A stretch of 25,611 nucleotides of DNA, taken from NCBI GenBank assembly GCA_964652335.1, contig CAZZDL010000003.1, positions 1-25,611 of the forward strand. The letters run 5' to 3'. Position 1 is the first letter of the stretch, and each line of letters opens with the position of its first letter. A model generated the notes under the pieces. It was not told the origin of the DNA, ran no database searches, and was given only the letters and a program-made list of their open reading frames with translations. Shown piece after piece: positions 3,373 to 25,611 of the stretch. The stretch comes from Candidatus Micrarchaeota archaeon (lineage in GTDB: Archaea; B1Sed10-29; WALL01; WAMD01). The position numbers were made by a program, and so were the translations under genes.

Positions 3373-3383
3373 AGGTGATTAGA

Positions 3384-3815: not shown

Positions 3816-3818
3816 GCC

Positions 3819-4644: not shown

Positions 4645-4651
4645 AGGGGGG

Positions 4652-5523: not shown

Positions 5524-5524
5524 A

Positions 5525-5923: not shown

Positions 5924-5932
5924 GTGATGGAT

Positions 5933-6301: not shown

Positions 6302-7039
6302 ATGGCAAGGAAGGGAGAAAACAAAAAGATGAAAAGAATAGCCGCTCCAAAGGCCTGGAAAATAGCTAGAAAGGAGAGTAAATGGATAATAAAGCCTAGA
6401 CCTGGTCCTCATACTCTAGAGACTTCAATACCCCTTGGAGTACTAGTAAGAGACATACTCGGATTGGCAAAGACCGCTAGGGAGGCTAAAGTCATAATAA
6501 AGCAAGGGAAGATAAAGGTAGATGGGAAGGTAAGAAAAGATCTGAAGTTCCCTGTAGGATTCATGGACACAATCAGTGTCCCTGGAATAGATAAGTACTA
6601 CAGAATAGTTTATGACAAACTTGGTAGGTTGGGAGCCATAGAAATAGATAGGAAAGAAGCAAATAAGAAGCTTGTGAGGGTTGTCAATAAAACAGCTGCC
6701 AAGGGAAGAAAGATACAAATAAACCTGCATGACGGTAGGAACATATTAGTGGAAAAAACAGATGCTAAAACTGGGGATTCCTTACTAATAAGAGTACCTG
6801 ATCAGAATATTGAAAAGATAATAAAACTGGAAGAAGGATCTATTGCATATATCGTTGGTGGAGGACACACTGGTGAGATGGCTAAAGTAAAAGAAATAGT
6901 TCCTGGAACCATAACTAGGCCTCCATTAGTTAAGCTGGTATCTGACGAAACGGAATTCTTAACTGATAAACAGAATGTTTTCGTCGTTGGTAAGGAAAAA
7001 CCTGAGGTTAGCATAGGTGATGTTAAATGGTCTCAGTGA
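6302..7039 (+). CDS. rps4e: 30S ribosomal protein eS4 (S4e)
   Basis: KRIAAPKAW, PRPGPH, VDGKVRKDLKFPVGFMD, NLHDGRN. Confidence 0.98.
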   Translation: MARKGENKKMKRIAAPKAWKIARKESKWIIKPRPGPHTLETSIPLGVLVRDILGLAKTAREAKVIIKQGKIKVDGKVRKDLKFPVGFMDTISVPGIDKYYRIVYDKLGRLGAIEIDRKEANKKLVRVVNKTAAKGRKIQINLHDGRNILVEKTDAKTGDSLLIRVPDQNIEKIIKLEEGSIAYIVGGGHTGEMAKVKEIVPGTITRPPLVKLVSDETEFLTDKQNVFVVGKEKPEVSIGDVKWSQ

Positions 7040-7530
7040 AAATTGATAAAGTCACAGTGAACATCGGTGTCGGCGAATCCGGAGAACCGCTAGAGAAAGC
7101 AGAAAAGCTATTGCTAAAACTAACTGGCCAAAAACCAGTTAGAACAAGGTCAAAGAAAAGGATACCTACATGGGGCATAAGGAGAAAGCAACAAATAGGG
7201 GTAAAGGTTACACTAAGAGGAAAGAAAGCTATGGATTTTCTAAAGATGGCATTGGAGGCAAAGGAGAATAAATTGAATCCAGGTAACTTTGACGATAATG
7301 GCAACTTCGCATTTGGTGTTAGTGAATACATAGATCTACCTGGAATAAAGTATGATCCTGATATAGGAATATTTGGATTTGATGTTTGTGTTACGTTGAT
7401 AAAGGATGGATACAGAGTGAAAAGAAGGAAAAGAGCTAAAGCCAAGATCCCTGCCAGGCACAAACTTTCAAAAGAGGAAGCAATTGAATGGGTTAAGTCG
7501 AACCTTGGGGTAAAGGTGGAGGCTGATTAA
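7027..7530 (+). CDS. rplE: 50S ribosomal protein uL5
   Basis: [39 protein letters not shown]. Confidence 0.98.
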
Positions 7531-7531
7531 A

Positions 7532-7681
7532 ATGTCCAAGAAAGAAAGCAAGAAAAAGAAGAATACTCCAACATGCAAGATTTGCGGTAGCCATAGAAGA
7601 GTAATTAGAAAGTATGGCTTAGACATATGCGGGAAATGCTTTAGAGAGGTTGCCAGAAAAATGGGTTTCAAAAAATACTGA
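7532..7681 (+). CDS. rpsN: 30S ribosomal protein uS14, zinc-binding type (49 aa; not in the ORF track)
   Basis: Translated by hand: [49 protein letters not shown]; two CxxC motifs; canonical position between uL5 and uS8. Confidence 0.97.
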
Positions 7682-7691
7682 GGTGAAAAAA

Positions 7692-8081
7692 ATGCTCATG
7701 GATCCAATAGCAGACGCGATGACAAGAATAAAACAGGCAGAGGACGCCAGGAAGAAGGAGGTTACGTTAAGACCAGCCTCAAAGCTACTCGGTAATATAC
7801 TATCTGTTATGCAAAAGAGAGGATACATAGGCGAGTATGAATACATAGATGATGGTAAAGGTGGTATGTACAAAGTAAAACTGTTGGGAAGAATAAACGA
7901 CTGCAAAGCTGTCAAGCCAAGACATCCAATAAAAATGATGGAAATAGAAAATTGGGAAAAAAGATTCCTACCTGCCGCAGGTATTGGCATTCTAATCCTA
8001 TCCACACCTGTGGGAGTCATTGATAATGAAGATGCTAAAAAGAGAAAAATAGGTGGTAGACTAATCGCATATGTTTACTGA
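7692..8081 (+). CDS. rpsH: 30S ribosomal protein uS8
   Basis: DPIADAM, GYIGEYEYIDDGKGG, LLGRINDC, IGGRLIAYVY; ATG 7692 after AGGTGA. Confidence 0.98.
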   Translation: MLMDPIADAMTRIKQAEDARKKEVTLRPASKLLGNILSVMQKRGYIGEYEYIDDGKGGMYKVKLLGRINDCKAVKPRHPIKMMEIENWEKRFLPAAGIGILILSTPVGVIDNEDAKKRKIGGRLIAYVY

Positions 8082-8091
8082 GGGGAGTATT

Positions 8092-8643
8092 ATGACGCTA
8101 GCAGCAGAAGTTGAAGAGATAGTTGAGATCCCAGATGGAATCACAGTTGAAGTGGATGGATTAAAGGTAACTATTAAAGGACCAAAGGGTAGCCTTACAA
8201 GGGAATTTAAGACAAAGGAAGAGATACACATAGACAAGGTAGATAACAAGATAAGGATATGGGCAAGATTCCCAAGGAGAAAGACCCTTGCAATGATGGG
8301 AACCATAAGAGCACATATTAAAAACATGATAACCGGAGTGACTAAAGGATACAAATATACACTTAAAGTCCATTATAGGCACTTCCCGATGAACGTTAGT
8401 GTAGAAGGAAATAAGGTCGTCATAAAGAATTTCCTCGGAGAGAAGAGCAATAGGTATGCGAACATTGTAGGTAACACAAAGGTGGAAGTGAAAGGGAAGG
8501 ATACTATCATAGTGACTGGAATAAATAAGGAAGAGGTCGGCCAAACCGCAGCAAATATTGAGCAAGCCACCTACGCCAAGAATAGAGATCCAAGAGTCTT
8601 TATAGACGGTATATACATAGTTGAGAAAGGTGAGGGAGAATGA
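8092..8643 (+). CDS. rplF: 50S ribosomal protein uL6
   Basis: KGPKG, AHIKNMITGVTKGY, HFPMNV, NFLGEK, RDPRVFIDGIY. Confidence 0.98.
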   Translation: MTLAAEVEEIVEIPDGITVEVDGLKVTIKGPKGSLTREFKTKEEIHIDKVDNKIRIWARFPRRKTLAMMGTIRAHIKNMITGVTKGYKYTLKVHYRHFPMNVSVEGNKVVIKNFLGEKSNRYANIVGNTKVEVKGKDTIIVTGINKEEVGQTAANIEQATYAKNRDPRVFIDGIYIVEKGEGE

Positions 8644-8981
8644 ATCCAAGAGAAAAGCCCAAATTCACAAAACAATACTCACACATGAAAAAGAGGGCTC
8701 AGAAAACTGGTTGGAGGAAGCCCAGAGGTATAGATAGCAAGCAGAGGAAACATACAAAGGCAAAGGGGAAACACCCGAGAGTTGGATATGGTGCTCCCAA
8801 TGAAACAAGATATTTGCATCCAAGTGGATATGAAGAAGTTTATGTGAAATGTTTATCAGACCTTGATAAGATAGATGCTGAAACACAAGCCATTAGGATA
8901 GCCAGCGTAGTTGGGAAAAAGAAGAGAGAGGAGATAATCAAAAAAGCAGATGAAATGGGAATTAGAATACTTAACAGGTGA
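8640..8981 (+). CDS. rpl32e: 50S ribosomal protein eL32
   Basis: WRKPRGIDSKQR, GYGAP, LHPSG. Confidence 0.97.
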   Translation: MNPREKPKFTKQYSHMKKRAQKTGWRKPRGIDSKQRKHTKAKGKHPRVGYGAPNETRYLHPSGYEEVYVKCLSDLDKIDAETQAIRIASVVGKKKREEIIKKADEMGIRILNR

Positions 8982-8986
8982 AGAAA

Positions 8987-9400
8987 ATGGAGCTGAAAAA
9001 AGTTAAGGAACTAGCAGCAAGGACGTTCAATGTTGGTATTCATAGAGTCAAAATTAAGGACTCTGAAAAGGCGAAGGAAGCCATAACCAGAGAAGACATA
9101 AAAAGACTTGTAAAGACTGGTGCAATTGAGATAAAACCAAAAAGAGGCTCTTCTAGAGGTAGAGCTAGAACATTGGCAAAGAAAAAGAAGCTAGGTAGAA
9201 GGAGAGGGCCAGGAAGTAGAAAGGGGAAGAAGACTGCAAGGAAACCAGCTAAAAAAGCATGGATGGAAAAAGTAAGGGCATTGAGAAAGACGTTGAAGGA
9301 ACTAAGGCCTGAAAACTATAGAGAACTGTATAAGAAAGTCAAAGGTGGTTTCTTCAGGAGTAAAAGACATCTTTTGTCCTACATAAGGGGTGTTAAGTGA
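8987..9400 (+). CDS. rpl19e: 50S ribosomal protein eL19
   Basis: AITREDIK, GRRRGPGSRKG, YRELYKKVKGGFF; ATG 8987 after AGGTGA. Confidence 0.97.
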   Translation: MELKKVKELAARTFNVGIHRVKIKDSEKAKEAITREDIKRLVKTGAIEIKPKRGSSRGRARTLAKKKKLGRRRGPGSRKGKKTARKPAKKAWMEKVRALRKTLKELRPENYRELYKKVKGGFFRSKRHLLSYIRGVK

Positions 9401-9921
9401 TGGCGAGTAAGACTGTGTATCGGGTTAGGTTTAGAAGAAGGAGAGAGGGGAAGACGAATTATAAGAAAAGGCTAGCAATGCTTAAATCAGACAAGCCCAG
9501 ACTTGTGGTTAGGGTTTTAAACAGGCAGGTAATCGCTCAATTGATAACCTTCCATGAAAAGGGGGACAAAGTATTAGTATCTGCCAGTTCTCATGAACTA
9601 AAGAAGTTTGGATGGGACGGCCACCCAGGCAATTGTCCATCTGCGTACCTAACTGGACTTCTACTGGGAGTAAGAGCAAAGAAAAAGGGATATTCCGAAG
9701 CTCTACTAGACATAGGTCTTCATACTCCAGTTAAAGGATCAAATGTCTATGCTGCATTAAAAGGAGCTATTGACGCTGGTATGGAAATCCCTCATAGCGA
9801 TGATGTTATTCCTCCTGAAGATAGAATTAGTGGTGCAATAATCGCCGAATACAGAGGAATTCCAGATTTGATTGAAAAATTCAATAAAGCTAAAGAAAAA
9901 ATAATGAAGGAGAAAGGGTGA
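9400..9921 (+). CDS. rplR: 50S ribosomal protein uL18
   Basis: [37 protein letters not shown] overlap with rpl19e. Confidence 0.98.
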
Positions 9922-9925
9922 GAAA

Positions 9926-10588
9926 ATGGCAGACTGGATACCGAAAACAAAATTGGGAAAACTTGTGGCTAGCGGAGAAATAAAGACAATGGATCAGGCA
10001 CTAGAAACTAAGCTGCCAATACTTGAACCTGAAATAATTGATATACTACTCCCTGATTTAGAAAAAGAAGTCCTGCAGATAAGAGTTGTTAGAAGAACTA
10101 CAGACTCAGGTAGAAAAAACAAGTTCTTTGCCACTGTGGTGGTCGGAAATAGAAATGGTTTTGTTGGTGTTGGCACAGGTAAGGCAATAAACACAAAACC
10201 AGCAATAGAAAGGGCAATAAGGAACGCAAAGATGAATATAATAAAAGTCAGAATGGGATGTGGGTCCTGGGAGTGTATGTGTGGTGGACATCATTCAATA
10301 CCCTACGTAACAGAAGGAAAATGGGGTTCTGTTAAGGTAAGATTGATACCTGCTCCTAAGGGAACAGGTCTGGTAATAGGGGATGTAGGAAAAAAAGTTC
10401 TAGAGCTAGCTGGTATAAAGGACGTTTGGAGCAGGACATGGGGAGACACAAGGACCACTTATAACTTCGCGTTCGCTGTTTGGGATGCACTGAGGAACTT
10501 GAGAAAGACAAGAATCCCAGATGAGGTAATTATAAAAGCAGAAGCAAGACCAATAGCTGAAACAGTCAAAGAAGGTGGAGAAGAATGA
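9926..10588 (+). CDS. rpsE: 30S ribosomal protein uS5
   Basis: [37 protein letters not shown]. Confidence 0.98.
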
Positions 10589-11052
10589 AAAGGCTAGCTG
10601 TAATCCAGATAAGGGGATTGATAGACACCCCAAAGGAGATTAAGGATACTCTAAAATTATTGCACCTAACTAGAGCGAACCATTGCGTCGTAATAGACGA
10701 TAGAGAGAGTTATATGGGAATGCTTCAAAAAGTAAGGCCATGGGTGACCTGGGGTGAAATTAGTAAGGAAATGATGGAAAAGCTCCTCAGGAAAAGAGGC
10801 AGGCTAGCAGGAAATAGAAAGCTCACAGACGAATATGTAAAGAAGAATACAAAATTTAAAGATATATCTGATTTTGTTGATGCATTTATGAAATTTGAAG
10901 TAGAATTGGAAGACATACCTAACTTAAAGCCAGTATTTAGACTAACCCCACCATCTGGGGGATACAAATCAATAAAGAGAGATTTTACACAGGGTGGAGA
11001 CAGAGGCTACAGAGGAGAAAAGATTAATGAACTGCTTGAAAAAATGATATAG
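10585..11052 (+). CDS. rpmD: 50S ribosomal protein uL30 (archaeal long form)
   Basis: [34 protein letters not shown]. Confidence 0.97.
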
Positions 11053-11062
11053 GTGAGATGAG

Positions 11063-11455
11063 ATGGCATTGAAAAACAGAAAGATAAGAAAGAAACACAG
11101 AGGAACAAGGAATTGCGGTAGAGGAAAGAAGGGCTCCAGAAGAAAAGGTGGTGGTAAAGGGCTAGCTGGATCTGCGAAACACAAGAAACTAAAAATAATC
11201 AAAGAAATGCCTGATCATTTCGGTAAACATGGAATGGGTATGAAAAAAGAAAAAATAAAGTATATAACACTCGCTAAAGTAATTGAAATAGCAGAAAAGA
11301 TAGGAAAAGACGAAATTGACTTGACCAAGCTTGGTTATAACAAATTGCTTGGTAAGGGGGAGATATCAAAGCCACTAAAGATAAAGGTTAAATACGTGAC
11401 TAACTCGGCAAAGGAAAAGATTGAAAAGGCTGGTGGATCTATCCAGCTGGCGTAA
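11063..11455 (+). CDS. rplO: 50S ribosomal protein uL15
   Basis: RGTRNCGRG, GGKGLAG, FGKHG, KLLGKG, AKEKIEKAGG. Confidence 0.97.
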   Translation: MALKNRKIRKKHRGTRNCGRGKKGSRRKGGGKGLAGSAKHKKLKIIKEMPDHFGKHGMGMKKEKIKYITLAKVIEIAEKIGKDEIDLTKLGYNKLLGKGEISKPLKIKVKYVTNSAKEKIEKAGGSIQLA

Positions 11456-11473
11456 CCACTAAAGGTGAAATAA

Positions 11474-12997
11474 ATGGGATGGGAAATACTTGATCCTATA
11501 ATTGCTATACTTCCTGATGTCAAAAGACCTGTTCAGAGGCAACCTCTAAAGAAAAGATTAATGTGGGTTGGAATTGCACTTATAATATTCTTCATTTTAT
11601 CACAGATACCCCCAATAGGAATGCTAACTCCACAGAGGCTAAAAGAGATACAAGTAACTGATCCCGCAAAGTATGCGCAACTCAGTCAAGAGTACTCAAA
11701 CGTTTTGCAAAGAGTAGCTTTCCTTGAAAACGTTCAGACAGTTTTAGCCAGTAGATTAGGAACGCTTGGGACACTAGGTATAGGACCAATAGTGATGGCA
11801 TCCATAATACTACAGCTACTGGTAGGAGCAGAGATAATCCAAATGGATAAGAAAAGATACATGGCAGCGACGAAGATTGGGGGGATACTATTTGCTTTCT
11901 TTGAAGGGGCCATATATGTTTGGTCTGGTTTCTTACCAATAGAACCAAGTGGAATAAGCATTCTACCCATACCTGGCATCTCTGGTCTATTTGACTTAAA
12001 CGCAATACTGGTAATTGGGCAAATAGCATTGGGATCCATAATCCTTCTATTCTTAGACGAGGTTGTATCAAAATGGGGAATAGGATCTGGGATAGGTTTA
12101 TTCATCGTTGGCGGAGTCTCTGAGGTAGTGGTCTACAGAGCGTTGCATCCGTTTTATGGAAGCATACCTTCATTCATAAACGCAATAATAAACGAAGGTG
12201 TACTACATTTGGATATCATCGCTCCACTGCTGGCTACTATATTAGTATTCTTAATAGTTGTATATGGAGAAGGAATGAGAATTGAGATACCTTTAACACT
12301 TGGAAGAATTAGAGGAGTTGGGGGAAGATTCCCATTAAAACTGTTCTATGTATCTAATATTCCAGTAATACTTGCAGCTGCATTGTTTGCTAATATACAG
12401 CTTTTTGCAAATGTACTTGCACAAGCAGGATTACCATGGCTTGGGAGATTCGGGCCAAACGGGCAACCTCTGCCTGTACTATCTCTAAGCCTAGATCCAT
12501 CTCAGTTTACTATTCCAATCGCCTGGCTTGTAAAGGCCCCTTATGGTGTGCTAAGCGGTTGGACAGCAATACAGCAAAACTTCATAAATCCAGCCCAAAC
12601 AGTATTGGGGGTAATCCCAATAGAACTTGTTCATATAATATTCTACCTTGCATTCATGATAGGTGCATGTATCCTGTTCGGAATGTTCTGGGTTGAAACA
12701 ACAGGTATGGGACCAAAGCAAGTGGCTAGACAACTACAATCTGCTGGTTTATCCATACCTGGATTCAGAAGGGATCCAAGAGTAATGGAAAGAGTAATGG
12801 AAAGATACATACCTGTGATAACTGTGATAGGTTCAGCTGCTGTTGGTGGTCTAGCAGCCCTAGCAGATCTAACTGGTGCGTATGGGACTGGAACAGGAAT
12901 CCTGCTGAGTGTTGGTATATTGTATAGGTTGTATGAAGAACTAATGTCTGCCCAATTGGCAGAGATGCACCCGGCACTAAAATCATTTTTAGGGTGA
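11474..12997 (+). CDS. secY: Protein translocase subunit SecY (Sec61 alpha)
   Basis: LGIGPIVMASIILQLL, SKWGIGSGIGLFI, FYVSNIPVIL, IPGFRRD, GTGTGILL. Confidence 0.98.
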   Translation: MGWEILDPIIAILPDVKRPVQRQPLKKRLMWVGIALIIFFILSQIPPIGMLTPQRLKEIQVTDPAKYAQLSQEYSNVLQRVAFLENVQTVLASRLGTLGTLGIGPIVMASIILQLLVGAEIIQMDKKRYMAATKIGGILFAFFEGAIYVWSGFLPIEPSGISILPIPGISGLFDLNAILVIGQIALGSIILLFLDEVVSKWGIGSGIGLFIVGGVSEVVVYRALHPFYGSIPSFINAIINEGVLHLDIIAPLLATILVFLIVVYGEGMRIEIPLTLGRIRGVGGRFPLKLFYVSNIPVILAAALFANIQLFANVLAQAGLPWLGRFGPNGQPLPVLSLSLDPSQFTIPIAWLVKAPYGVLSGWTAIQQNFINPAQTVLGVIPIELVHIIFYLAFMIGACILFGMFWVETTGMGPKQVARQLQSAGLSIPGFRRDPRVMERVMERYIPVITVIGSAAVGGLAALADLTGAYGTGTGILLSVGILYRLYEELMSAQLAEMHPALKSFLG

Positions 12998-13001
12998 AGA
13001 T

Positions 13002-13511
13002 ATGATTGAGATACTTGGAATAAAGATATTTTATCCATTGGCGTTTGGAATAATCACGTTATTAGCCACCCTACTAACGATATTCTCATTGTTTATCCAC
13101 AGAAAAATGGTTGACCAAAAGAGAATGGAAGAAATTAGAAAGAAGATGGAAGAACATCAAAAAAGGTACATGGAGGCAAAAAAATCGGGCGACAAGAAGT
13201 TGCTTGCAAAATTGGAAATAGAACAAGAGGAGATAATGAAACAGTTCAAAGAAAATATGTATCAGTCGTTTAAGCCATTATTCATAACGACGCCAGTTGT
13301 ATTATTGCTTTTGTGGAGTATGGGGTCTGCTTTCGGATCCTTAGGACCAATACTAGAACTGCCATTTGGATTACCTGTGTTAACAAGACCGTTCTATGAC
13401 ATGGGAGTTGTAAATGGTATCGACTGGTTAGGATGGTATATAGTTGTTGGTTTAGGATCCAGTCTAATTGGCCAGCTAATATTGAAAAAGCTGAAAGGTG
13501 AGAAGAAATGA
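13002..13511 (+). CDS. DUF106 / EMC3-TMCO1-Get1 (Oxa1 superfamily) membrane protein
   Basis: TM helix, charged coiled coil, M..SFKP motif, C-terminal WLGWYI; conserved position after secY. Confidence 0.88.
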   Translation: MIEILGIKIFYPLAFGIITLLATLLTIFSLFIHRKMVDQKRMEEIRKKMEEHQKRYMEAKKSGDKKLLAKLEIEQEEIMKQFKENMYQSFKPLFITTPVVLLLLWSMGSAFGSLGPILELPFGLPVLTRPFYDMGVVNGIDWLGWYIVVGLGSSLIGQLILKKLKGEKK

Positions 13512-15201: not shown

Positions 15202-15229
15202 AAATAATGACAATCATAATTTAGTCGCT

Positions 15230-15311
15230 GCCGGGGTGGCGGAGTGGAAACGCGCTAGCCTTGAGAGCTAGTGGCCTTCGGGCCGCGAGGGTTCGAATCC
15301 CTCCCCCGGCG
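15230..15311 (+). tRNA. tRNA-Ser(UGA), intronless, CCA not encoded
   Basis: Acceptor GCCGGGG/CCCCGGC, anticodon arm CTAGC-CTTGAGA-GCTAG, long variable arm TGGCC-TTCG-GGCCG, T arm GAGGG-TTCGAAT-CCCTC, discriminator G. Confidence 0.97.
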
Positions 15312-15387
15312 TAGAACCGTCGCGTCCGTTCACGCCGCGAACGAAGCCTATCGCTCTGCGATAGGCTGGCCTTCGGGCGGGGTTCTA
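15312..15387 (+). ncRNA. Candidate 76-nt cloverleaf-like structured RNA directly after tRNA-Ser
   Basis: Closing stem TAGAACC/GGTTCTA enclosing CGTTC/GAACG, AGCCTATCGC/GCGATAGGCT and GCC-TTCG-GGC hairpins. Confidence 0.4.
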
Positions 15388-15555: not shown

Positions 15556-15831
15556 TTATTTCTTCTTTCTCTTAGAGGCCTTCTTTTTGGTTGTCTTTTT
15601 CTTTGTTGTCTTCTTCTTTGTAGTTTTCTTCTTTGTCGTCTTCTTTTTCTTCTTAGTTGTCTTCTTCTTAGTGGCCAACTTTACCACCCCCTTTTTCTTT
15701 TTTAACATGAGCATGGACTTAGGATGATGTTCCTCCTTTTCTTTTATCTCCTCTTTGATAATGTCATGTCTAGATGGATTCCTAGAGAATTTCTTTTTCA
15801 AAAAATAATACAAGTTCCCAATCAATTTCAT
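15556..15831 (-). CDS. Highly basic protein with KKKTT repeats (91 aa, or 40 aa from TTG at 15678)
   Basis: Repeat unit encoded by mixed synonymous codons; SD-like GGGGTGG upstream of TTG 15678; TATA at leaderless distance from ATG 15831; T-rich terminator downstream. Confidence 0.75.
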   Translation of the reverse strand: MKLIGNLYYFLKKKFSRNPSRHDIIKEEIKEKEEHHPKSMLMLKKKKGVVKLATKKKTTKKKKKTTKKKTTKKKTTKKKTTKKKASKRKKK

Positions 15832-15883: not shown

Positions 15884-16855
15884 ATGATAATTTTGGGAAT
15901 TGAATCCACTGCCCACACAATTGGAATTGGGATTACTGATGGAAAAAAGGAACTAGCAAATGAAATGATGATGTACAAGACAACTGGAGGCATCCATCCA
16001 AGAGAAGCTAGTCAGTTTATGGCAAAGAATGCCCCACTTGTTGTGAAAAAAGCTCTAGAGAAATCTGGACTAACTATTAATGACATAGATGGAATAGCTG
16101 TTGCAAATGGTCCTGGACTCGGGCCCTGCTTAAGAGTTGGTGTAAGTCTAGCTGTATTTTTATCAAGCTATTACTCTCTCCCACTAGTCGGAGTAAATCA
16201 TTGCATAGCACATATAGAAGTTGGTAAACATGATTTAGGGTTCAAAGACCCATTGGTTGCATACGTATCTGGAGCGAACACTCAAATAATTGGGCTAGCT
16301 GGTGGAAGATATAGGATATACGGGGAAACACTTGACGTTGGATTGGGCAATGCAATAGATATGGTTGGAAGGAAAATGGGGTTAGAATTCCCAGCCGGGC
16401 CGAAGATGGAGGCCCTAGCTAAAAAAGGTAAAAACTTCATAGAACTTCCATATACAATAAAGGGTATGGATTTAACATTCTCAGGGCTTGTTACTGCAGC
16501 TAAAAAGCTAGTTGGGAAAACTAACAAGAACGACCTCGCTTTCTCATTCCAAGAAACAATATTCTCCATGTTTGTTGAAGTAACTGAAAGGGCATTAGCT
16601 CACACTAAAAAGAAAGAACTATTGCTTGTTGGTGGAGTAGCTCAAAATGCAAGGCTGAGAGAAATGTTCCAAAAAATGGTAAAACCACATAAAGCCAAAT
16701 TCGGTTCACCAAAGCCAGAGCATAATAGAGACAATGGATTCATGATTGCACTCACTGGATGGAAAATGATTAAGGCAGGGTTAAAGACTGATCCAAGAAA
16801 TATAGGGATAAAACAAGGTTGGAGGACAGACGAGGTTGACGTCTGCTGGAGATAA
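15884..16855 (+). CDS. kae1: KEOPS subunit Kae1 (tRNA t6A threonylcarbamoyltransferase), not fused to Bud32
   Basis: GIESTAHT, GGIHPREA, GPGLGPCL, metal-binding HCIAH, VSGANTQ, GETLD, GGVAQN, RDNG. Confidence 0.97.
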   Translation: MIILGIESTAHTIGIGITDGKKELANEMMMYKTTGGIHPREASQFMAKNAPLVVKKALEKSGLTINDIDGIAVANGPGLGPCLRVGVSLAVFLSSYYSLPLVGVNHCIAHIEVGKHDLGFKDPLVAYVSGANTQIIGLAGGRYRIYGETLDVGLGNAIDMVGRKMGLEFPAGPKMEALAKKGKNFIELPYTIKGMDLTFSGLVTAAKKLVGKTNKNDLAFSFQETIFSMFVEVTERALAHTKKKELLLVGGVAQNARLREMFQKMVKPHKAKFGSPKPEHNRDNGFMIALTGWKMIKAGLKTDPRNIGIKQGWRTDEVDVCWR

Positions 16856-16897: not shown

Positions 16898-18166
16898 ATG
16901 AAGTTGAGGATGCATCTAATGGATGGGAAGCCTCCAGAGAGGCTGAGCAAGATTATAGGTACTTATAAGATGGGAAACTTCATCTTGGATATAACAAATT
17001 CTCCAACAAGGAAAAGAAGCTTTGGTGTTGGAGAAGTAATAATAAAGAATGAATTTCCAGAAGACCTCTGGAGGAAAACCAGCCTCGCTCTGGAGCAGTT
17101 CTTACTGAAACAATTCTACAAGAAAATGAAAAAGGCTGGATTTAGTTGGATAGAATTCCAAAGGCCCACTAGTTTTTTAGTGAAAAGATCTGGGATAAAA
17201 TTTGACGTTGATAAGATATACTTGAGATTTCACTTCAGGCCACCACTCAGGAAAAACAGAGTCAACGGAAAACTGTTGGCAAAGGGGTTTGAAAAGGTAT
17301 TGCCAAAAGTAGTGAATGAAAGTTTATCAGAGGTCATACATAGAAATGAAGAAATAAGGATGACAAAAAACTGCCTTGAGGATCAAATAGCGGTAAAAGC
17401 ATATCTAAGAGACAATGGATATACCATGTTCATCCCAAACGAGATAGTGTTTGGCAATTATAAAATCAGATTGAAAGGAAATGATGTTGTAAAGACTCCA
17501 CATTCTGGTAAAGTAAAAGGTGTCCTAATAAATGGTGGATCTGTCTGGTTGGCCAACTGCCCTATTGAGCTGTCCGAATTAATAGCAAAATCATACGCAT
17601 ACAGAAAATGTGATGATTACACAAGCTTATTAAAATCAGTAAATGATTTCGCTTTCATAGGTAGCCAGGACGTAAACGCAGTTGAATACTTCGGTGTAAA
17701 AAAAGTATTCTCCATAGAAAACCTGGGAATTGGTAAACAGATATACATAAACAACACAGATGGCGATCCTGCTATAACAATAGACATGAAGACAGGAGAA
17801 GTGACAAAAACTGGTAAAAACGAGAGTGTAATGAAAAATGAAATAATATCTCTCAGTCCTCCTGAATTTAGAAAGGTCAAACTAGTGGACAACACCATTT
17901 GGTATGAGGATAATAAGATCACATTACCATTCACGTTCGCTTCAACAATAATAGAAAAATCCCAGCTAAGAGGACTAGTGGACGCAGTCAACCTCTCAAA
18001 AAGATATGCAACTGGAAGGGATGTAAAAGCACTAGCAAACAAGGTAATAAGCGTAGTAAATAAAGATGGACTTAGGGTTTTGGGACTGGGTTTCTATACC
18101 GAATTTACTGGATGGCAGCTTTTTTATATCCTATGGAGGATGGCATTAAAAAGCTCGCAATCATAA
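16898..18166 (+). CDS. Divergent COG3044 / ABC_ATPase (MRB1590-like) family protein lacking the P-loop
   Basis: Colinear recalled family motifs: DGK..GTY..GNFILDI, FPEDLW..LALEQFL, LPKVVNESL, EDQ....YL...G...FIPN, PHSGKVKG, C-terminal SQLRGLVDA and DGL; no GxxxxGKS/T anywhere. Confidence 0.7.
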   Translation: MKLRMHLMDGKPPERLSKIIGTYKMGNFILDITNSPTRKRSFGVGEVIIKNEFPEDLWRKTSLALEQFLLKQFYKKMKKAGFSWIEFQRPTSFLVKRSGIKFDVDKIYLRFHFRPPLRKNRVNGKLLAKGFEKVLPKVVNESLSEVIHRNEEIRMTKNCLEDQIAVKAYLRDNGYTMFIPNEIVFGNYKIRLKGNDVVKTPHSGKVKGVLINGGSVWLANCPIELSELIAKSYAYRKCDDYTSLLKSVNDFAFIGSQDVNAVEYFGVKKVFSIENLGIGKQIYINNTDGDPAITIDMKTGEVTKTGKNESVMKNEIISLSPPEFRKVKLVDNTIWYEDNKITLPFTFASTIIEKSQLRGLVDAVNLSKRYATGRDVKALANKVISVVNKDGLRVLGLGFYTEFTGWQLFYILWRMALKSSQS

Positions 18167-18186
18167 TCCAATACACGGGTGGTAAA

Positions 18187-20145
18187 ATGGAAGGTGTATT
18201 AACTGGATTGATAGGCCTAGTGTATGTTTTGTATCTTATCAACTTTGTAATAAAACACAAAATAAAAAAGGATAAAACCAAAGAAGTGACTCACCTTATA
18301 AAAACGGGTGCTCGTGCTTATTTACATAGTCAGTATACACTTGTCCTCGTATTCGTTGTAATTGTAACCGCTATCCTCTGGCTCACTAGTGGCTGGGGAA
18401 TTGCCCTCGCTTTTGCATCTGGAAGTCTACTTTCAGCGATAAGTGGATATATAGGAATGGAAGTTGCCACTAGTGCAAACGGTAGAACGGCGGAGGCAGC
18501 TTCAGACAGTGTGAAAAAAGCATTGAGAATTGCTTTCTCCGCCGGGTCTGTTATGGGGCTTACTGTTGTAAGTCTTGGATTGATTGGACTAAGCATTGTA
18601 TACATGTATCTATCTTCTCATCTTGGAGTAAATGCAGCGTTGCAAAGCATAATAGGGTTTGGATTTGGCGCTTCAGCTATGGCATTGTTCGCTAGGGTTG
18701 GTGGAGGGATATACACAAAAGCTGCCGATGTTGGTGCTGATTTGGTTGGGAAAGTAGAAAAGGGAATACCTGAAGATGATCCAAGAAATCCGGCTGTGAT
18801 AGCAGATAATGTTGGTGATAATGTTGGTGACGTAGCAGGAATGGGAGCGGATCTATTTGAATCATACGTAGATTCCATAATCTCTGCAATGATACTTGCA
18901 TTCGTTGGTTTTGGAGTTGAAGGGATTCCAATCCCAATAAGGATTGCATCTATCGGATTGATTGCATCAATAATTGGAACACAATTGGTGCATACAAAAG
19001 GAGCAAGGATAAAAGATTTACTATGGGGGTTAAGGCGTGGTTTCATTGCAGCAATTTTAATCGTGGTAGTTATTAGCTTTCTACTATTTGATCAGTCCAC
19101 AGCAATAGCGGTAACAATAGGGTGTTTGACTGGATTGATTATAGGGTTTTCTACCGAGTATTATACATCTCCAAACTATCCAAGCACGAAATTCGTAGCG
19201 AAGGCAGCTAAGGATGGTGCTGGCATAAATGTTATAGCTGGACTATCAGTAGGAATGAAATCAACAATAATTCCAGTTATAATAATAGTCATTGCATTAG
19301 TACTTGCCACAAAAGTTGCTGGAGTATATGGGGTTGCCCTTGCGGCTGTTGGTATGTTATCCACTTTAGGAGTAACGTTGGCATCTGATGCATACGGTCC
19401 AGTAGCAGATAACGCTGGCGGAATAGCAAAGATGGCTGGGCTTGGCACGAGAACCAGGAAGAGAACAGATGTCTTGGATGCACTTGGGAATACAACCGCA
19501 GCTGTCGGAAAGGGGTTTGCAATTGGTTCAGCAGCACTGACATCCTTAGCATTAATAACAGTCTTCATACAAAATACTGGATTGAACGTATCAGAGTTTA
19601 GTCTTGGAGATCCATTTGTAGTATCTGGAATAATTCTTGGTGCAATGATGCCGTTTGCATTTTCATCTTCAATAATAAAATCAGTAGGTAAAACAGCTGA
19701 GAAAATAGTTGAAGAGGTCAGAAGGCAGTTCAAAAGAAAATCAATACTAAAAGGAAAAGGAAAACCAGATTACGAAAGGTGTGTAAGAATAGCATCAACA
19801 CATGCGGTAAAAGAAATGATATACCCAGGAGCGTTGGCAATCCTAGTTCCCATAATCGTTGGTTTTGTGCTAGGAGTAAAAAGTTTGGCAGGATTGCTCA
19901 TCGGTGCAACCTCTACTGGCTTTCTAATGGCTGTGTTTATGGCTAACGCTGGCGGAACTTGGGACAATGCCAAAAAGATGATTGAAAAAGGATTATTCGG
20001 AGGACCTGGAAGTGAAGCTCATAAATCAGCAGTTATAGGAGACACTGTTGGGGATCCACTCAAAGACTCAAGTGGGCCAAGTCTAAATATATTGATAAAG
20101 CTTATGAGTATCGTGGCTTTGGTTATAATAAGATTTATTGTGTGA
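18187..20145 (+). CDS. hppA: Membrane-bound cation-translocating pyrophosphatase, K+-dependent type
   Basis: [76 protein letters not shown] 18187 after GGGTGG. Confidence 0.97.
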
Positions 20146-20154: not shown

Positions 20155-20568
20155 ATGAAAGCAACCGAAATTAAAAAATTCATTGCAAAGGAATTGTATA
20201 TAATAGACTTATACCACGACTACATGAAAAAGATTGATGACCTGGACATAAGAAAGACATTGATGACATTGATAGTAGAGTCCCTAATCCACGCAGACAT
20301 GTTTGATGAACTTTTAAGGCAAAAGATAGGCGCTGGGGCAAAGAGACAGTTAACCGATGATGAAATAGAAACCCTGCTAAAGGAAGGAATGAAGGAGGAA
20401 GTAGACGCTAGAGAGATGTATAAGAAAGCTCTTGAAGAACCGGACACAACAGAAACAGAAAAGGAAGCTTTAAACATGATAATAAGCGATGAAATCAGAC
20501 ATGAAAAAATGCTTAAAGATCTTGTAAGGCGGTTGTATGAAGCTAATATACAGAGGGGCAGAGGCTGA
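20155..20568 (+). CDS. Ferritin-like (rubrerythrin-type) four-helix diiron domain protein
   Basis: Two E..Y / ExxH pairs: [14 protein letters not shown] and [14 protein letters not shown]; no rubredoxin CxxC domain. Confidence 0.75.
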
Positions 20569-21130
20569 ACTCTGGAAATCCAAATTCCTCGGATTGCCAT
20601 GCGTATTAAAGAAAAGGATTAGGAAAGAGTATAGGATAAAAGAAATTGATGAACGAATCAGGACATCAAGAGTAAAAAATGAGACTAGAATGCTGATTAA
20701 GGCTAGGAGATACGTAAATACTCCCCATGTGCTAGATGTGGATGAAGATGAATGTTCAATAATACTGGAGTACATTGAAGGCATGAAGGTTAGAGATATA
20801 ATTTACGAAGGAAAAATGGTTGAACGGATTGGAAAAGAGATTGGCAAGTCAATCAGAAAACTCCATGATGCTGGTATTGTCCACAATGACTTAACAACGT
20901 CTAATTTTATCTGGAACGGAAAACTCTGGTTGATAGATTTCGGGCTGGCAAAGTCAAGTGAAAGGATTGAAGATAAAGCTACCGATTTAGTTGTATTCAA
21001 AAGAATGATCTTTGCAAGCCATTGGGATGTGGCGGATAGATTATGGAAGGCATTCTCAAAAGGATACAGACTAAGCAAAAAGATGGAAGAAAGGATAAAA
21101 GAGATTGAGAGCAGAGCTAAATACATGTAA
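20537..21130 (+). CDS. bud32: KEOPS kinase/ATPase Bud32
   Basis: YRGAEA, KKRIRKEYR..IDERIR..R, HNDLTTSN, IDFGLA, EDKATDL, C-terminal IESRAKY. Confidence 0.96.
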   Translation: MKLIYRGAEAELWKSKFLGLPCVLKKRIRKEYRIKEIDERIRTSRVKNETRMLIKARRYVNTPHVLDVDEDECSIILEYIEGMKVRDIIYEGKMVERIGKEIGKSIRKLHDAGIVHNDLTTSNFIWNGKLWLIDFGLAKSSERIEDKATDLVVFKRMIFASHWDVADRLWKAFSKGYRLSKKMEERIKEIESRAKYM

Positions 21131-22057
21131 CTATCTCATTAGTAATGCTAACACTGCCTTCTGCACGTGAAGCCTATTTTCTGCCTCATCAAATACAACA
21201 CTTTGCTCGCTGTCTATAACTTCGTCCGTTACTTCGTGATTCCTATGCGCAGGCAAACAGTGCATAAATATAGCGTTCTTATCTGCCATTGCCATTAGCT
21301 CTGAATTAACTTGATATGGAGATAAGTCTTCTATCCTCTTCTTTTCTTCCTCCTCCCTTCCCATTGACACCCAAGTATCTGTATAAACAACGTCTGCCCC
21401 GGTTACGTCTGAGGGATCATTTGAGATAGCAAGACTTCCACCGCTGATCTCATTGTTTTCATTTGCCATTGAAATGACTTCATCTGCTGGTTCATATCCC
21501 TTGGGTGTGATCACAACAATGTTAGAGCCAAGCTTTGAAGCTAAAAGCATGAGAGAATGGGTAACGTTGTTGTTCCCATCTCCTATGTATGCTATCTTTA
21601 CATTAAATGTATGCTTATGCTCTAATATGGTGTAAAAATCAGCCAATGCCTGGCATGGGTGATACATATCGCTAAGCGCATTTATAACTGGGATTGTTGC
21701 ATTAAGGGCCAATTTCTCTATCTTCTCATGCTCATATACCCTAGCTATTATGCCATCAACCATTCTTGATAAAACCATGGCTGTGTCTTCTATTGTCTCC
21801 CCTCTAGATAACTGTATGTCATTCTTTGAAAGATATAATGCATGCCCCCCAAGCTGGGTCATTGCAACCTCAAAGCTGACCCTAGTCCTTGTTGAGGGCT
21901 TTTCAAATATCATACCAAGAGATTTCCCTTCAAGTAAGTAATGCCTTCTACCCATCTTTGTTTCTGTTTTTAAATGCTTTGTTACGTCAAATATTGTGTC
22001 TATATCTTTTCTAGTCAGATCATTAACAGTTACTAAGTCCTTAACACTTAACTGCAT
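21131..22057 (-). CDS. argF: Ornithine carbamoyltransferase
   Basis: FEKPSTRTR, HPCQ, GDGNN, DTWVSMG, HCLP, EAENR; ATG 22057 after GGGTGG. Confidence 0.97.
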   Translation of the reverse strand: MQLSVKDLVTVNDLTRKDIDTIFDVTKHLKTETKMGRRHYLLEGKSLGMIFEKPSTRTRVSFEVAMTQLGGHALYLSKNDIQLSRGETIEDTAMVLSRMVDGIIARVYEHEKIEKLALNATIPVINALSDMYHPCQALADFYTILEHKHTFNVKIAYIGDGNNNVTHSLMLLASKLGSNIVVITPKGYEPADEVISMANENNEISGGSLAISNDPSDVTGADVVYTDTWVSMGREEEEKKRIEDLSPYQVNSELMAMADKNAIFMHCLPAHRNHEVTDEVIDSEQSVVFDEAENRLHVQKAVLALLMR

Positions 22058-22092
22058 AATACCACCCCACATATTAACAATAGCAGTATTTA

Positions 22093-23004
22093 TTAGCCTT
22101 GAGTGATAATCGTACCTGTTTTTCTATTCAAGGCATCCAACACCTTGTCTAGTCTGGTTATTATTGAAAACTTTCCTCCTGATTCAACGAATTTTATTGC
22201 AGCCAAAATTTTTGGTTTCATGCTACCTTCTGAGAAATGACCTTCACTTAGGTAGCTCTTCATTTTCTCAAGAGTAATCTCTCTTATTGGTTTTTGGTTT
22301 GGTTTTCTAAAGTTGAGATACGCGTACTCAACGTCAGTAAGTATTATCAACCCATCTGCCCCTATTTCCCTGGCTATAACGTACGACGCTAAATCTTTAT
22401 CAATAACTGCCTCAACCCCTGTTAAATCCTCCAAAACAGGTATCCCTCCTCCCCCGCCACATACAACTATATAACCTCTATCCAGCAAAGCCAAAATGGC
22501 CTTTGACTCTAGACTCCTGATAGGCATTGGGCTAGGAACAACTCTCCTGTATCCCCGTCCTGCGTCTTCTTTCACTACCCACTCTTTAGGTAATCCTTTT
22601 GGACTAGGATAAAATGGACCTACAGGCTTTGTTGGATTCTCAAAAGCGGGATCGTTCTTATCAACCACCATTCTAGTTAATACACTAACAGTCCTTTTAT
22701 CCATCCCTTTTTCTCTCATAACCTTGTCCATCTCTGTCTGAATAGCATATCCAAGAAGCCCTTGAGTCATTGCATCGCACGCATCCAGAGGCATTGGTGG
22801 GACAAGTCCCTTGGCCTGTTCCTGTTGTATGAGCAGTGCCCCAACCTGTGGACCATTTCCATGAGTTATAACAATTTCGTGCTCCCTAGCTATCTCTGCC
22901 AGAAAACCAGATGTTCTCCTTAGATTCGCCAATTGGCTACTGAATGTCCCCCTCTCTCCTCTTTTTAGTATAGCATTTCCGCCAAGGGCGATTACTAATC
23001 TCAT
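22093..23004 (-). CDS. arcC: Carbamate kinase
   Basis: VIALGGNA, THGNGPQVG, PTKPVGPFY, RRVVPSP, GGGGIPV, EAVIDKD, GSMKPK. Confidence 0.97.
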   Translation of the reverse strand: MRLVIALGGNAILKRGERGTFSSQLANLRRTSGFLAEIAREHEIVITHGNGPQVGALLIQQEQAKGLVPPMPLDACDAMTQGLLGYAIQTEMDKVMREKGMDKRTVSVLTRMVVDKNDPAFENPTKPVGPFYPSPKGLPKEWVVKEDAGRGYRRVVPSPMPIRSLESKAILALLDRGYIVVCGGGGGIPVLEDLTGVEAVIDKDLASYVIAREIGADGLIILTDVEYAYLNFRKPNQKPIREITLEKMKSYLSEGHFSEGSMKPKILAAIKFVESGGKFSIITRLDKVLDALNRKTGTIITQG

Positions 23005-23011
23005 AGCATGA

Positions 23012-23251
23012 CTACTCCAGCTCAAGCTCCTTCTTTATCTCTCTTATTATTTCGCCAGTCTTCAATTCCCCAACCATTGTTGGTAGATTTTTTTCTGCAT
23101 AGTCCAAAAACGCCTTTATCTTCCCTTCAGTTAACTCCTCTGGACCAGTAACTCCAACCTTCTTCAGATAATGGTCAAATAATTCTCTGACGCCATGCCT
23201 CCCGCCTACTTCATGTATCCTTAAATGAGCCTCTTTTCCTAATTTTGGCAT
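23012..23251 (-). CDS. Hypothetical small helical protein, first gene of the arcC-argF unit
   Basis: Fills the gap between a TATA region and arcC, 7-nt gap to arcC, E/K-rich composition like other genes here; no family recognised. Confidence 0.65.
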   Translation of the reverse strand: MPKLGKEAHLRIHEVGGRHGVRELFDHYLKKVGVTGPEELTEGKIKAFLDYAEKNLPTMVGELKTGEIIREIKKELELE

Positions 23252-23311: not shown

Positions 23312-23863
23312 ATGGAGCTAGTGTTCGTGACAGGGAACAAGAGGAAATTTGAGGAGGCAAGAGAGATTTTGGGTGACGTAGGAATAGATATTGCTTGGAA
23401 AAACATTGACCTGAAAGAAATTCAGGCAGACAGCTTAGAAGAAATTGCTAAGGAGAAAGCGATAGATGCCTACGAAAAGCTTAGAGAGCCATGCTTTGTT
23501 GAAGACGCTGGCCTATTTGTGAAAGCGTTAAATAATTTCCCTGGGCAGTACTCAAAATTCGTTTTGAATACGATTGGATATGAAGGAATAATAAAACTAA
23601 TGAAAAATGAAATGGATAGAACTGCAGAATTTAGGGCAGTTATTGCGTTTACAGACGGCAAGGAGGTAAAGACGTTCAAAGGAGTTGTAAAAGGGAAAAT
23701 AGCTCTAAAACCAAGCGGAGAATCTGGATTTGGTTTTGATCCAATATTTATCCCTAATGGATATGAAAAGACATTTGCAGATGATCCTGTAACAAAAAAT
23801 AGAATTAGCCATAGAAGGAATGCATTGCTAGCATTCAAAGAATGGCTAATCTCTAATAAGTAA
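23312..23863 (+). CDS. rdgB: XTP/dITP diphosphatase (RdgB/HAM1 ITPase)
   Basis: FVTGNKRK, EIQ, VEDAGL, FPGQYSK, GFGFDPIF, KNRISHR. Confidence 0.97.
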   Translation: MELVFVTGNKRKFEEAREILGDVGIDIAWKNIDLKEIQADSLEEIAKEKAIDAYEKLREPCFVEDAGLFVKALNNFPGQYSKFVLNTIGYEGIIKLMKNEMDRTAEFRAVIAFTDGKEVKTFKGVVKGKIALKPSGESGFGFDPIFIPNGYEKTFADDPVTKNRISHRRNALLAFKEWLISNK

Positions 23864-25354
23864 TCAGGTTCCCTTCTTGTATACCCATAGACGTCTTATC
23901 CTAGCTTCAACCCTGAAAAATACTGGGGCGTCTATCTTTAGATCACCGCCTATGTGTTTTATGTAGGAGAGTACTTGACTCGGGATATGCAGGTTTGCAT
24001 TCTCCATTGTTGTTTTATCGAACTGGAATTCCCTTGACTTTAACGGCTCATTTTCTATTTCAGCAGCTACAAAATTAGCCAGAGCGTCTCCCATCTTTAT
24101 TCCTGTTTTCACGCCGTTGATTAATGCTTCATGATCTCCAACCGATGGCAAGGCTAGAATAGAACCCTTGTAAACCACCAGCTCATTGCTAAATCCTGGT
24201 CCGACAAGGCTCTTTTCATATCCAACTATCCAGACCTCTAGAGCCTTCTCGTCAAATTCCCTTTCATAGACCTTAAATTCACATGGGGCTGGCTGGGAAG
24301 AATAAAGCTTTGCATTCTTTAGAATTGCATTAACTATCTCCTTTCCTAGTTTTGTTTTTGGTTTCTTTTCAATTCCTATCTTTGATGCAATCTCTTCGTC
24401 TGACAAGTACCACTCTCCGTAAAATTGAGGATAGAGGGCAGAGAGCGGTTCCTTACCCATTGCTCTATACATCTTCAATAGGTCTATCTCAAAATAGAAC
24501 ACGGGATCCTCTATCCCATAGTTGTGAAGTGAGGTGGAGGAGAGCTGAGCAATATGGCCAAAGGTCGTTTCCCTAAACTTCATTTTCATGAAGGATCTTG
24601 GGATGAAAGCAAGATATGTGGTTATACTCGGGAGAAAGCTAGGTGTCATATTAAGATCTGAAAAAATCTTAGAAAGGATGCCTTTCAATTGGGATATACT
24701 TGAATCCCCAACCAGCACGCCAGATAGTATTGGTCTTGTTTCCTCAAAAATATGGACATTACCGATTGCAAAATAAGCTCTAGGAGAAGGATATCTCTTA
24801 TATAACTCAGATAATGTCTTGAACCACAATGAGCAAAGAGAGGAAGATAAAAATCTTCCAGATAAAGAGAATTTTGTCTTCATAACCCTCTCAGTCAGCA
24901 ATATGGCCTGTTCTGGTAAAAGTCCTGCCACCTCTACTAAAAGCCTGGGCACGTCTCTAGCAAGGATCTTTCCAGATGAATAATCATCAAACAATGTTTT
25001 AACCTTGTTTAAAGTAGATTTTCCTATATCTGGAATCACTTTTTTGATATCTTCATCTGTCAATGTATGCATCCTAGATGAAACAGCTAGTTGAGGAAAA
25101 TCGTTTATGTAAAAATTTATTCCCAGCTGGTTGTCTAAATCAGCCTTATCAATAATCTCGGGCAGGACAACTTCGTTAAAACCTAGTTTGATTAGACTGT
25201 TTGACAAGGTCCTTTCAAATTCCATAAACTCATTTGGACTAGCCTTACCAAGCTCTACCTCTCCGTCTAGCCTAGGCTCCTCTGACAACCATTCTGCTAG
25301 CTTGGATTTTCTCATGGTACTACTAACGATTAGCTTGTTTAAAAATCTTTCCAT
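23864..25354 (-). CDS. O-phosphoseryl-tRNA synthetase (SepRS)-like protein with degenerate catalytic motifs
   Basis: SepRS-like C-terminal half (LYPQFYGEW.LSDEEIA, PAPCEF, LVGP...NELVVYKG.I, G..TGI, APVF) and motif-1 region LGFNEVV.P; class II motif 2 and 3 arginines absent. Confidence 0.8.
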   Translation of the reverse strand: MERFLNKLIVSSTMRKSKLAEWLSEEPRLDGEVELGKASPNEFMEFERTLSNSLIKLGFNEVVLPEIIDKADLDNQLGINFYINDFPQLAVSSRMHTLTDEDIKKVIPDIGKSTLNKVKTLFDDYSSGKILARDVPRLLVEVAGLLPEQAILLTERVMKTKFSLSGRFLSSSLCSLWFKTLSELYKRYPSPRAYFAIGNVHIFEETRPILSGVLVGDSSISQLKGILSKIFSDLNMTPSFLPSITTYLAFIPRSFMKMKFRETTFGHIAQLSSTSLHNYGIEDPVFYFEIDLLKMYRAMGKEPLSALYPQFYGEWYLSDEEIASKIGIEKKPKTKLGKEIVNAILKNAKLYSSQPAPCEFKVYEREFDEKALEVWIVGYEKSLVGPGFSNELVVYKGSILALPSVGDHEALINGVKTGIKMGDALANFVAAEIENEPLKSREFQFDKTTMENANLHIPSQVLSYIKHIGGDLKIDAPVFFRVEARIRRLWVYKKGT

Positions 25355-25521
25355 TTTGGTTTGACTTTTTAAAGCTTTTTAATAGATATGGTTAGAATAT
25401 CTAAAAGTTGTTTTATAAAAATTTAGAATAAAAAACCGGTGAAGCAAGTAAGTAACTTTGTAAGCGATAACCTATGGGTAAATATTTAACTAGATTATGT
25501 GTAATCACTACAGGTGATAAT

Positions 25522-25611
25522 ATGCCTTTTACTAAAGCAAAGGCAAGGAAAATAGTTAAAGAGGTAATAATGCCAAAGCTCCCTAAGCATCCTGGAAAAA
25601 TAAGAAAGCTG
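25522..25611 (+). CDS. 5' part of an unidentified protein running off the window
   Basis: GGTGA (25513-25517) then ATG; open for 30 codons: MPFTKAKARKIVKEVIMPKLPKHPGKIRKL. Confidence 0.6.
   Translation, partial: MPFTKAKARKIVKEVIMPKLPKHPGKIRKL

Follow-up and report, generated by a model that had tools for sequence, protein, structure and literature searches.

A probable pseudoenzyme derived from SepRS and conserved in its C-terminal domain in a small class of DPANN archaea

Introduction

The closest described relatives of the protein analysed here come from the survey of Mukai et al. (2022; PMC8762117), section 3.3.2 and Fig. 8 of which present a single 'highly degenerated' full-length SepRS homologue from a Micrarchaeota bin of the Alv-FOS5 group. 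The same paper describes two SepRS homologues from the pISA35 group that consist of the C-terminal domain (C-domain) only and lie opposite asnS, and offers the guess that degenerate homologues support other aminoacylation systems. Its section 3.3.1 deals with SepRS-like proteins of Thermoplasmata and Deltaproteobacteria that it reads as perhaps retaining activity towards a different amino acid, and fusions of SepRS to a ThrRS editing domain are also among its types. Diverged SepRS-like genes that are not paired with SepCysS appear in PMC5424206. In Methanocaldococcus jannaschii the two anticodon-binding domains of SepRS meet, and three pairs of loops at this place bind the coiled coil of SepCysE (PMC5688128).

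The window analysed here (the whole stretch of DNA, 25,611 nucleotides) encodes such a degenerate homologue, which we call pseudo-SepRS. A metagenome scan found a protein 100% identical to it over residues 1–496 on Ga0190314_1000723 and 100% identity over residues 159–496 on Ga0190313_1000196, and these are two of the four contigs in the figure legend of PMC8762117. As a sequence of unassigned function pseudo-SepRS is therefore already published. New here are a class-wide series of dead forms, purifying selection on the C-domain and a mapped conserved surface, none of which was found in a literature search that had most subscription papers outside its range; the same search found no later work on these degenerate homologues beyond PMC8762117, and a term search of PMC9499178 gave no passage on them.

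Results

Extent, homology and fold of pseudo-SepRS

The gene and its domains, as placed by alignment to A. fulgidus SepRS (PDB 2du3) and by the predicted model, are as follows.

23864..25354, minus strand: pseudo-SepRS ORF of 496 aa, the likely start being the ATG at 25315 (483 aa)
25070..25237, minus strand: amino-terminal segment of the class II core, including the motif 1 region, residues about 40–95 (2du3 alignment and model)
24860..25069, minus strand: SepRS helical insertion domain, residues 96–165 (model), missing from the relatives of about 385 aa and about 195 aa
23894..24421, minus strand: C-terminal anticodon-binding-type domain, residues 312–487, the one region that every relative has and the best conserved of all

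The initial annotation had described an intact frame of 496 aa without stops and homology to SepRS over the whole length, and both descriptions hold. In the ORF reading of the window 496 codons are open end to end on the minus strand, from 25354 to 23864, with a codon-position GC (0.46/0.35/0.39) similar to that of eight neighbouring genes; as close orthologues start where Met14 (25315) stands, the protein probably has 483 aa. Residues 43–486 align to 2du3 in phmmer (E 3e-33), the AlphaFold model has a mean pLDDT of 90 and the ten top Foldseek matches to this model are all SepRS chains (an ESM Atlas search gave no usable match). The C-domain by itself matches 2du3_A with Z 22.7 and rmsd 1.9 over 175 residues, and in a fold search of 48,161 representatives SepRS alone stands out, the next row having Z 5.8. 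Homology and fold thus place the protein in SepRS across the catalytic, insertion and C-terminal domains, although its TIGR00470 score of 142.7 bits stays below the family cut-off of 380.65. A likeness to PheRS beta that had been claimed for it is real (41 bits against a cut-off of 22.4 for PF17759, the PheRS beta catalytic-like module) but not special, because SepRS with intact motifs also exceeds this cut-off (34.2 bits).

Other genes in the window

The nearest neighbour of pseudo-SepRS is the following.

23312..23863, plus strand: RdgB/HAM1 XTP/dITP diphosphatase, tail to tail with pseudo-SepRS, the stop codons abutting

Divergently upstream, an ORF occupies 25498-25611 (plus strand) of the window and is complete at L113:21-644 (minus strand); it encodes a basic helical protein of 207 aa with a hydrophobic middle and has no NCBIfam match. 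A gap in the assembly of the host genome falls inside this ORF, which was matched in 2/31 genomes of the class and is not a co-distributed partner. A scan for bacterial-type promoters gave matches at chance level. Elsewhere the window holds what we take to be an S10-spc cluster of ribosomal protein genes of the ordinary kind, secY included (244-13511, plus strand), a tRNA-Ser(UGA) gene (15229-15312, plus strand) and a 91-aa ORF (15556-15831, minus strand) with lysine/threonine repeats at its end, histone-H1-like by composition and lacking a Pfam match. Separate Kae1/TsaD and Bud32-like kinase genes lie around an H+-pyrophosphatase gene (15884-16855, 18112-20145 and 20537-21130, plus strand), and a 422-aa ORF (16898-18166, plus strand) matches the N-terminal domain only of an ABC-class ATPase family (PF20446), no match to the ATPase domain being found in it. 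Tandem ornithine carbamoyltransferase and carbamate kinase-like genes of the lower arginine deiminase pathway (21131-23025, minus strand) would be a possible source of ATP.

All three catalytic motifs are replaced

That the phosphoserine-binding motif, motif 2 and motif 3 of pseudo-SepRS are all replaced had been proposed, and alignment confirmed it at the following coordinates.

24821..24850, minus strand: eroded phosphoserine-binding motif, residues 169–178, LRSHMTTGWF to LSSSLCSLWF (RSHMT to SSSLC)
24740..24772, minus strand: eroded motif 2, residues 195–205, FSIDRCFRREQ to FAIGNVHIFEE (FRRE to HIFE)
24470..24496, minus strand: eroded motif 3, residues 287–295, NLGLGVERLAM to YFEIDLLKM (NLGLGVER to YFEIDLLK)

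Where SepRS has RSHMT and Asn-X-Gly, pseudo-SepRS has SSSLC and Y-F-E; the motif 2 arginine is I202, the Gly-X-Gly-X-Glu-Arg of motif 3 is E-I-D-L-L-K with both glycines acidic, and eight residues are deleted directly after motif 2, shortening the loop. In a 28-row alignment with six motif-intact SepRS and seven family-level orthologues, H172, T174, the motif 2 R202, N287, G289 and G291 are invariant in 6/6 of the former and absent from 7/7 of the latter, which have I or D at the motif 2 arginine position. A search for conserved arginines in another register turned up K294 and R297: K294, at the motif 3 arginine position, is S or N in 5/7 family-level orthologues, and R297 (in YRAMG), three residues past that position, is invariant in the seven close orthologues but lost in families f3 and f4. 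R170 is kept in 12/13 full-length dead forms and is Ser in pseudo-SepRS itself. With motif 2, whose Arg228, Glu230, His237 and Tyr240 are named as ATP contacts in section 9 of PMC5688128, gone and the motif 3 glycines acidic, binding of ATP appears very unlikely. As far as alignment can tell, pseudo-SepRS is confirmed as a catalytically dead SepRS homologue.

The host genome decodes cysteine with CysRS

The genome of the window (821 kb, 96.8% complete) was searched with profiles for the remainder of the pathway. No second sepS over the TIGR00470 cut-off was found in it; three stretches match, all under the cut-off, two of them in the pseudo-SepRS gene and one in PheRS alpha. SepCysS was not found in this genome either, the weak matches being cysteine desulfurase-like ORFs on reading. 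CysRS, which had been named as a gene to look for, is intact and tRNA-Cys(GCA) is present, so that cysteine is decoded directly. Intact pheS and pheT genes lie side by side, and each of the 19 expected synthetases, as well as GatE, has a full-length candidate (the names of some are those we take to fit their motifs). Two side observations concern C34:1929-2666 and C17:13711-15309: a short GatB-like ORF (423-aa frame) persists next to tRNA-Asn despite AsnRS and GatE, and LysRS appears to be class II.

A series of dead forms runs through the class

Among 31 genomes of the class, 21 carry a SepRS-family gene when rows that score at least 140 bits are counted, the weaker ones being cross-matches to PheRS; the C-domain profile matched 20 of them and the 21st carrier has an N-terminal fragment at a contig end. 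Family f5 (two genomes) keeps all SepRS motifs together with SepCysS and CysRS, and these are the sole class genomes with SepCysS (2/31). The dead forms (19/31) run from full length down to the C-domain only: nine full-length forms in the order of the host (three of them cut by contig ends), five of about 385 aa without the insertion domain (f10) and C-domain-only proteins of 192–197 aa (f8, 5/5 genomes). TIGR00470 scores along the series fall from 473, 465 and 461 through 328, 239 and 162 to 143 bits, no complete member aligned has a stop or frameshift and the domain deletions are clean, in-frame and always spare the C-domain. CysRS was matched in 28/31 genomes, including all 19 carriers of dead forms, in none of which was an intact sepS or SepCysS found; no class genome showed more than one C-domain match of note. 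As the family has no match in 10/31 genomes, three of them at least 90% complete, the protein must be dispensable. In addition, a protein search gave six further orthologues of 481–487 aa (49–65% identical to pseudo-SepRS) and the C-domain profile gave 145 matches in 1.84 billion representatives, further truncations of 199–432 aa included; a single-protein scan of genome contigs with pseudo-SepRS had no match.

A 532-aa protein, P0014, keeps RSHMT and FRNEQ, exceeds the sepS cut-off (461.5 bits) and already carries the C-terminal tail of the order (RMWRHEQPR). Its Asn-X-Gly has become Asn-X-Asp, making this near-intact form a candidate for altered amino-acid specificity. In the full-length tree 22 degenerate rows lie on one side of a branch and six intact rows on the other (support 92/95). 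To these 28 rows the C-domain tree adds 13 degenerate and 18 intact-looking ones picked by eye from the 145 (59 rows); it separates all class-like rows from 22 outside SepRS (support 81) and needs two changes for inactivation. A single clade of all 35 degenerate rows was not rejected by the AU test (p 0.64) and the constrained tree scored higher, so topology does not support several origins of inactivation; only the near-intact P0014, inside the clade of the order (support 98), suggests that motifs were lost separately.

Gene position argues for vertical descent: FttA adjoins the SepRS-family gene in f8 and f10 and lies 2.3 kb away in the f4 genome, and the f3/f4 and G005 neighbours given below point the same way. 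No neighbour conserved across the whole class was found. Linkage to asnS is seen in f8 and f10, the short forms standing head to head with it in 9/9 loci whose upstream side was visible, a KaiC-like ATPase and tRNA-Gln(UUG) stand opposite the gene at four loci of f3/f4, and f1 loci share no common neighbour. GatB/GatE (29/31) and Trm5-family genes (27/31) do not track the dead gene. Opposite the least eroded member (G005) are cysK, a tRNA-Cys-like gene and cysS. This tRNA-Cys(GCA)-like gene (L035:3160-3260, minus strand) was missed by ARAGORN and read by eye; close to the T arm it seems to carry some 27 extra bases, and a LAGLIDADG ORF lies between it and cysS.

Three other proteins, P0096, P0106 and P0148 (636–638 aa), join SepRS to the editing domain of archaeal ThrRS, PF08915 scoring above its cut-off. 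Their Sep motif, motif 2 and motif 3 have degenerated, unlike those of intact fusions such as P0066. They represent a separate degeneration and could act as tRNA-directed trans-editing deacylases; no dead versions were found mentioned in those parts of PMC8762117 that treat the fusion type.

The C-domain is under purifying selection

Rates were estimated by the Nei-Gojobori method; the dS values are unreliable. Between pseudo-SepRS and its orthologue in genome G003 (353 codons) dN is 0.35 and dS about 1.8, near saturation, so omega would be roughly 0.2 or lower. The two C-domains are 71% identical (dN 0.21), close to the rate of CysRS in the same pair of genomes (76%, dN 0.19), and the dead cores only 41% (dN 0.59). 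pN was below pS in all 21 pairs computed. Mean identity among the seven close orthologues rises from core (0.53) to C-domain (0.67) to tail (0.77), and in four outside SepRS the order is reversed (core 0.53, C-domain 0.41). On these comparisons the C-domain is under purifying selection much as CysRS is, and neutral decay of pseudo-SepRS, which would have refuted the initial annotation, is not tenable.

The conserved surface has moved

The retention of the C-terminal half that had been claimed holds for the fold and fails for the residues that read the anticodon. We compared 35 degenerate rows (including the nearly intact P0014) with 22 outside SepRS; the degenerate rows are kin, collected in part with a profile built from them, and residues that they share may therefore simply be inherited. 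Glu at 378, the position of A. fulgidus E418, whose role is evidenced by the titles of mutant structures among the Foldseek matches, occurs in 3/35 degenerate and 18/22 outside rows and is G378 in pseudo-SepRS. Phe at 479, the position of F526, presumably an anticodon-reading residue, is found in 6/35 against 22/22, although pseudo-SepRS itself has F479; Ala at 387 (6/35 against 22/22) and Gly at 476 (13/35 against 22/22) go the same way. E/D380, at the position of E420, is half kept (20/35; E380 in pseudo-SepRS). The E418, E420 and F526 equivalents are thus not conserved as a set, for which reason specific binding of the tRNA-Cys anticodon seems doubtful.

Another set of residues is held instead, in two elements.

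24221..24283, minus strand: beta-hairpin, residues 358–378, with the lineage signature K361, E364, R/K365, E373, W375; its end, G378/E380, corresponds to A. fulgidus E418/E420
23867..23929, minus strand: last beta-strand (E483, R485) and tail R-I-R-R-L-W-V-Y-K, a tail that the order conserves and canonical SepRS lacks

Here the counts (degenerate against outside) are K/R361 34/35 against 1/22, K/R365 29/35 against 0/22, E/Q373 33/35 against 4/22, aromatic 375 33/35 against 7/22, E483 31/35 against 5/22 and R/K485 30/35 against 6/22; the two intact SepRS of the class already have four of the six (K361, R365, W375 and E483). In the model the residues sit at alternating positions on the hairpin and the last strand, and this alternation along predicted strands suggests that they face outward on one exposed face. 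They may instead stabilise the exposed sheet. The C-domain has 26 K+R and 26 D+E, hence no net positive charge, and the patch is balanced too, which would suit a protein ligand better than RNA. Of the SepRS loops that bind SepCysE, loop 2 maps to about residues 365–370 (by arithmetic from end-points rather than residue-level alignment) and loops 1 and 3 map, through the M. maripaludis alignment, just past the invariant P332 and E434. By this indirect alignment the patch probably lies at or beside the C-domain cleft where SepCysE docks in Methanocaldococcus.

Discussion

Our preferred reading, to which we give a probability of about 45%, is that pseudo-SepRS is a non-catalytic adaptor whose C-domain docks a putative protein partner, and we propose that it was kept because this domain acquired a second, binding job. 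An ancestor of the class had SepRS, whose motifs are still intact, alongside SepCysS and CysRS, in two genomes. As the distribution shows, lineages that lack SepCysS decode cysteine through CysRS, and their SepRS copies lost Sep, ATP and anticodon residues stepwise until C-domain-only proteins were left. The alignments show that the C-domain remained under selection, which shifted to another surface, that of the hairpin and its neighbouring strand. The dead core, where present, may merely hold the oligomer together. We infer that the C-domains pair as in canonical SepRS, with the patch exposed, and that the docking site would be at or beside the cleft that receives the SepCysE coiled coil in M. 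jannaschii. As partner we would guess a protein that acts in tRNA metabolism or in translation. The analysis supports the suggestion of the initial annotation that the protein was repurposed for binding or as a scaffold. Still more tentatively, the dead SepRS is possibly the hub of a complex peculiar to this DPANN class, its second job having arisen while the enzyme was active; if so, this would explain why catalysis eroded more than once and how the protein was whittled to a 195-aa module missed by annotation.

The alternative that survives best, which we nevertheless consider unlikely, is a non-catalytic tRNA-binding cofactor, the C-domain gripping the anticodon arm with relaxed or changed specificity in aid of a synthetase or a tRNA-modifying enzyme. 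Arc1p and Trbp111 are proteins of this kind. The retained domain is RNA-binding by ancestry, conservation extends to the exposed aromatic W375, to K361 and R485 and to the basic-aromatic tail R-I-R-R-L-W, E/D380 persists in 20/35 rows, and the head-to-head pairing with asnS and the cysK, tRNA-Cys-like and cysS genes opposite the G005 member are what such a role might lead one to expect. Against it stand the loss of the E418 and F526 equivalents (left in 3/35 and 6/35), the lack of net positive charge, the separation of asnS from pseudo-SepRS in the host genome and the full-length candidates there for 19 synthetases and GatE, with which none plainly lacks a tRNA-binding domain. This alternative comes close to the guess made in PMC8762117.

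A slowly vanishing relic with no new job, conserved through folding constraints and short time, would account for the full erosion series and for the 10/31 genomes without a match, and is strongly disfavoured by the open frames of all complete aligned members, by a C-domain that keeps to the CysRS rate with synonymous sites close to saturation and by clean in-frame deletions that always spare this domain. That the class II core has gained another function, catalytic or ligand-sensing, as in other synthetase paralogues, is equally improbable: the core is still 53% identical among the seven close orthologues, which all have R297, and R170 is in 12/13 full-length dead forms, but the motif 2 arginine is I or D in 7/7, both glycines of motif 3 have given way to acidic residues, S or N replaces K294 in 5/7, R297 is lost in f3/f4, R170 is Ser in pseudo-SepRS, and the core evolves faster and is deleted outright in f8. 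More improbable still is an alternative beta subunit for PheRS alpha, the sole class IIc catalytic subunit in the host genome; the dead core is over the PF17759 cut-off and 27.7% identical to the host PheT over 112 columns, and its motif 3 has changed to F-E-I-D-L, resembling PheT, but the genome has intact pheS and pheT side by side, intact SepRS passes PF17759 too and the interface-forming core is the least conserved part and missing in f8. A beta subunit of an alpha2beta2 SepRS, as first proposed, can practically be dismissed, since beyond the PheRS analogy and a retained core fold of PF17759 level nothing speaks for it, no intact sepS or SepCysS that would supply a catalytic alpha subunit and its pathway was found in the host genome or any of the 19 dead-form carriers, PheRS alpha has its own pheT and no genome had a second C-domain match of note.

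Pseudo-SepRS offers a clean example of a synthetase that became a pseudoenzyme. Canonical SepRS (TIGR00470; PDB 2du3, 2du7, 5x6c) matches it end to end in fold and domain order; it differs in the lost Sep, ATP and anticodon residues, the score below cut-off, the lack of SepCysS and the extra C-terminal tail. PheRS beta (PF17759), HisZ, which is a dead synthetase paralogue, and similar proteins likewise have a class II core without chemistry that serves assembly, whereas in pseudo-SepRS it is the C-terminal domain rather than the core that is conserved, and its genome yielded no catalytic partner from the same family. The SepRS-like proteins of Thermoplasmata and Deltaproteobacteria, as presented in section 3.3.1 of PMC8762117, share with it the lack of SepCysS and the changed Asn-X-Gly, but pseudo-SepRS has lost motif 2 too. 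The C-domain-only homologues of the pISA35 group, whose build and asnS linkage are those of family f8, share its hairpin signature and, unlike it, have no class II core, insertion or RLW tail. With the homologue of Mukai et al. (2022) the protein is identical, agreeing also in its contigs, in the lack of SepCysS and in the full synthetase set; section 3.3.2 of that paper found no other example, and pseudo-SepRS now has at least six close orthologues and a class-wide series. This series, which is under purifying selection, occurs in genomes that are smaller than about 1.2 Mb and lose most genes they can do without, and K361, E373, W375, E483, R485, the RLW tail and the small proteins provide handles for testing its function. 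What was a lone oddity in 2022 is now one rung of a complete series of extant proteins that leads from an active synthetase to a free-standing domain.
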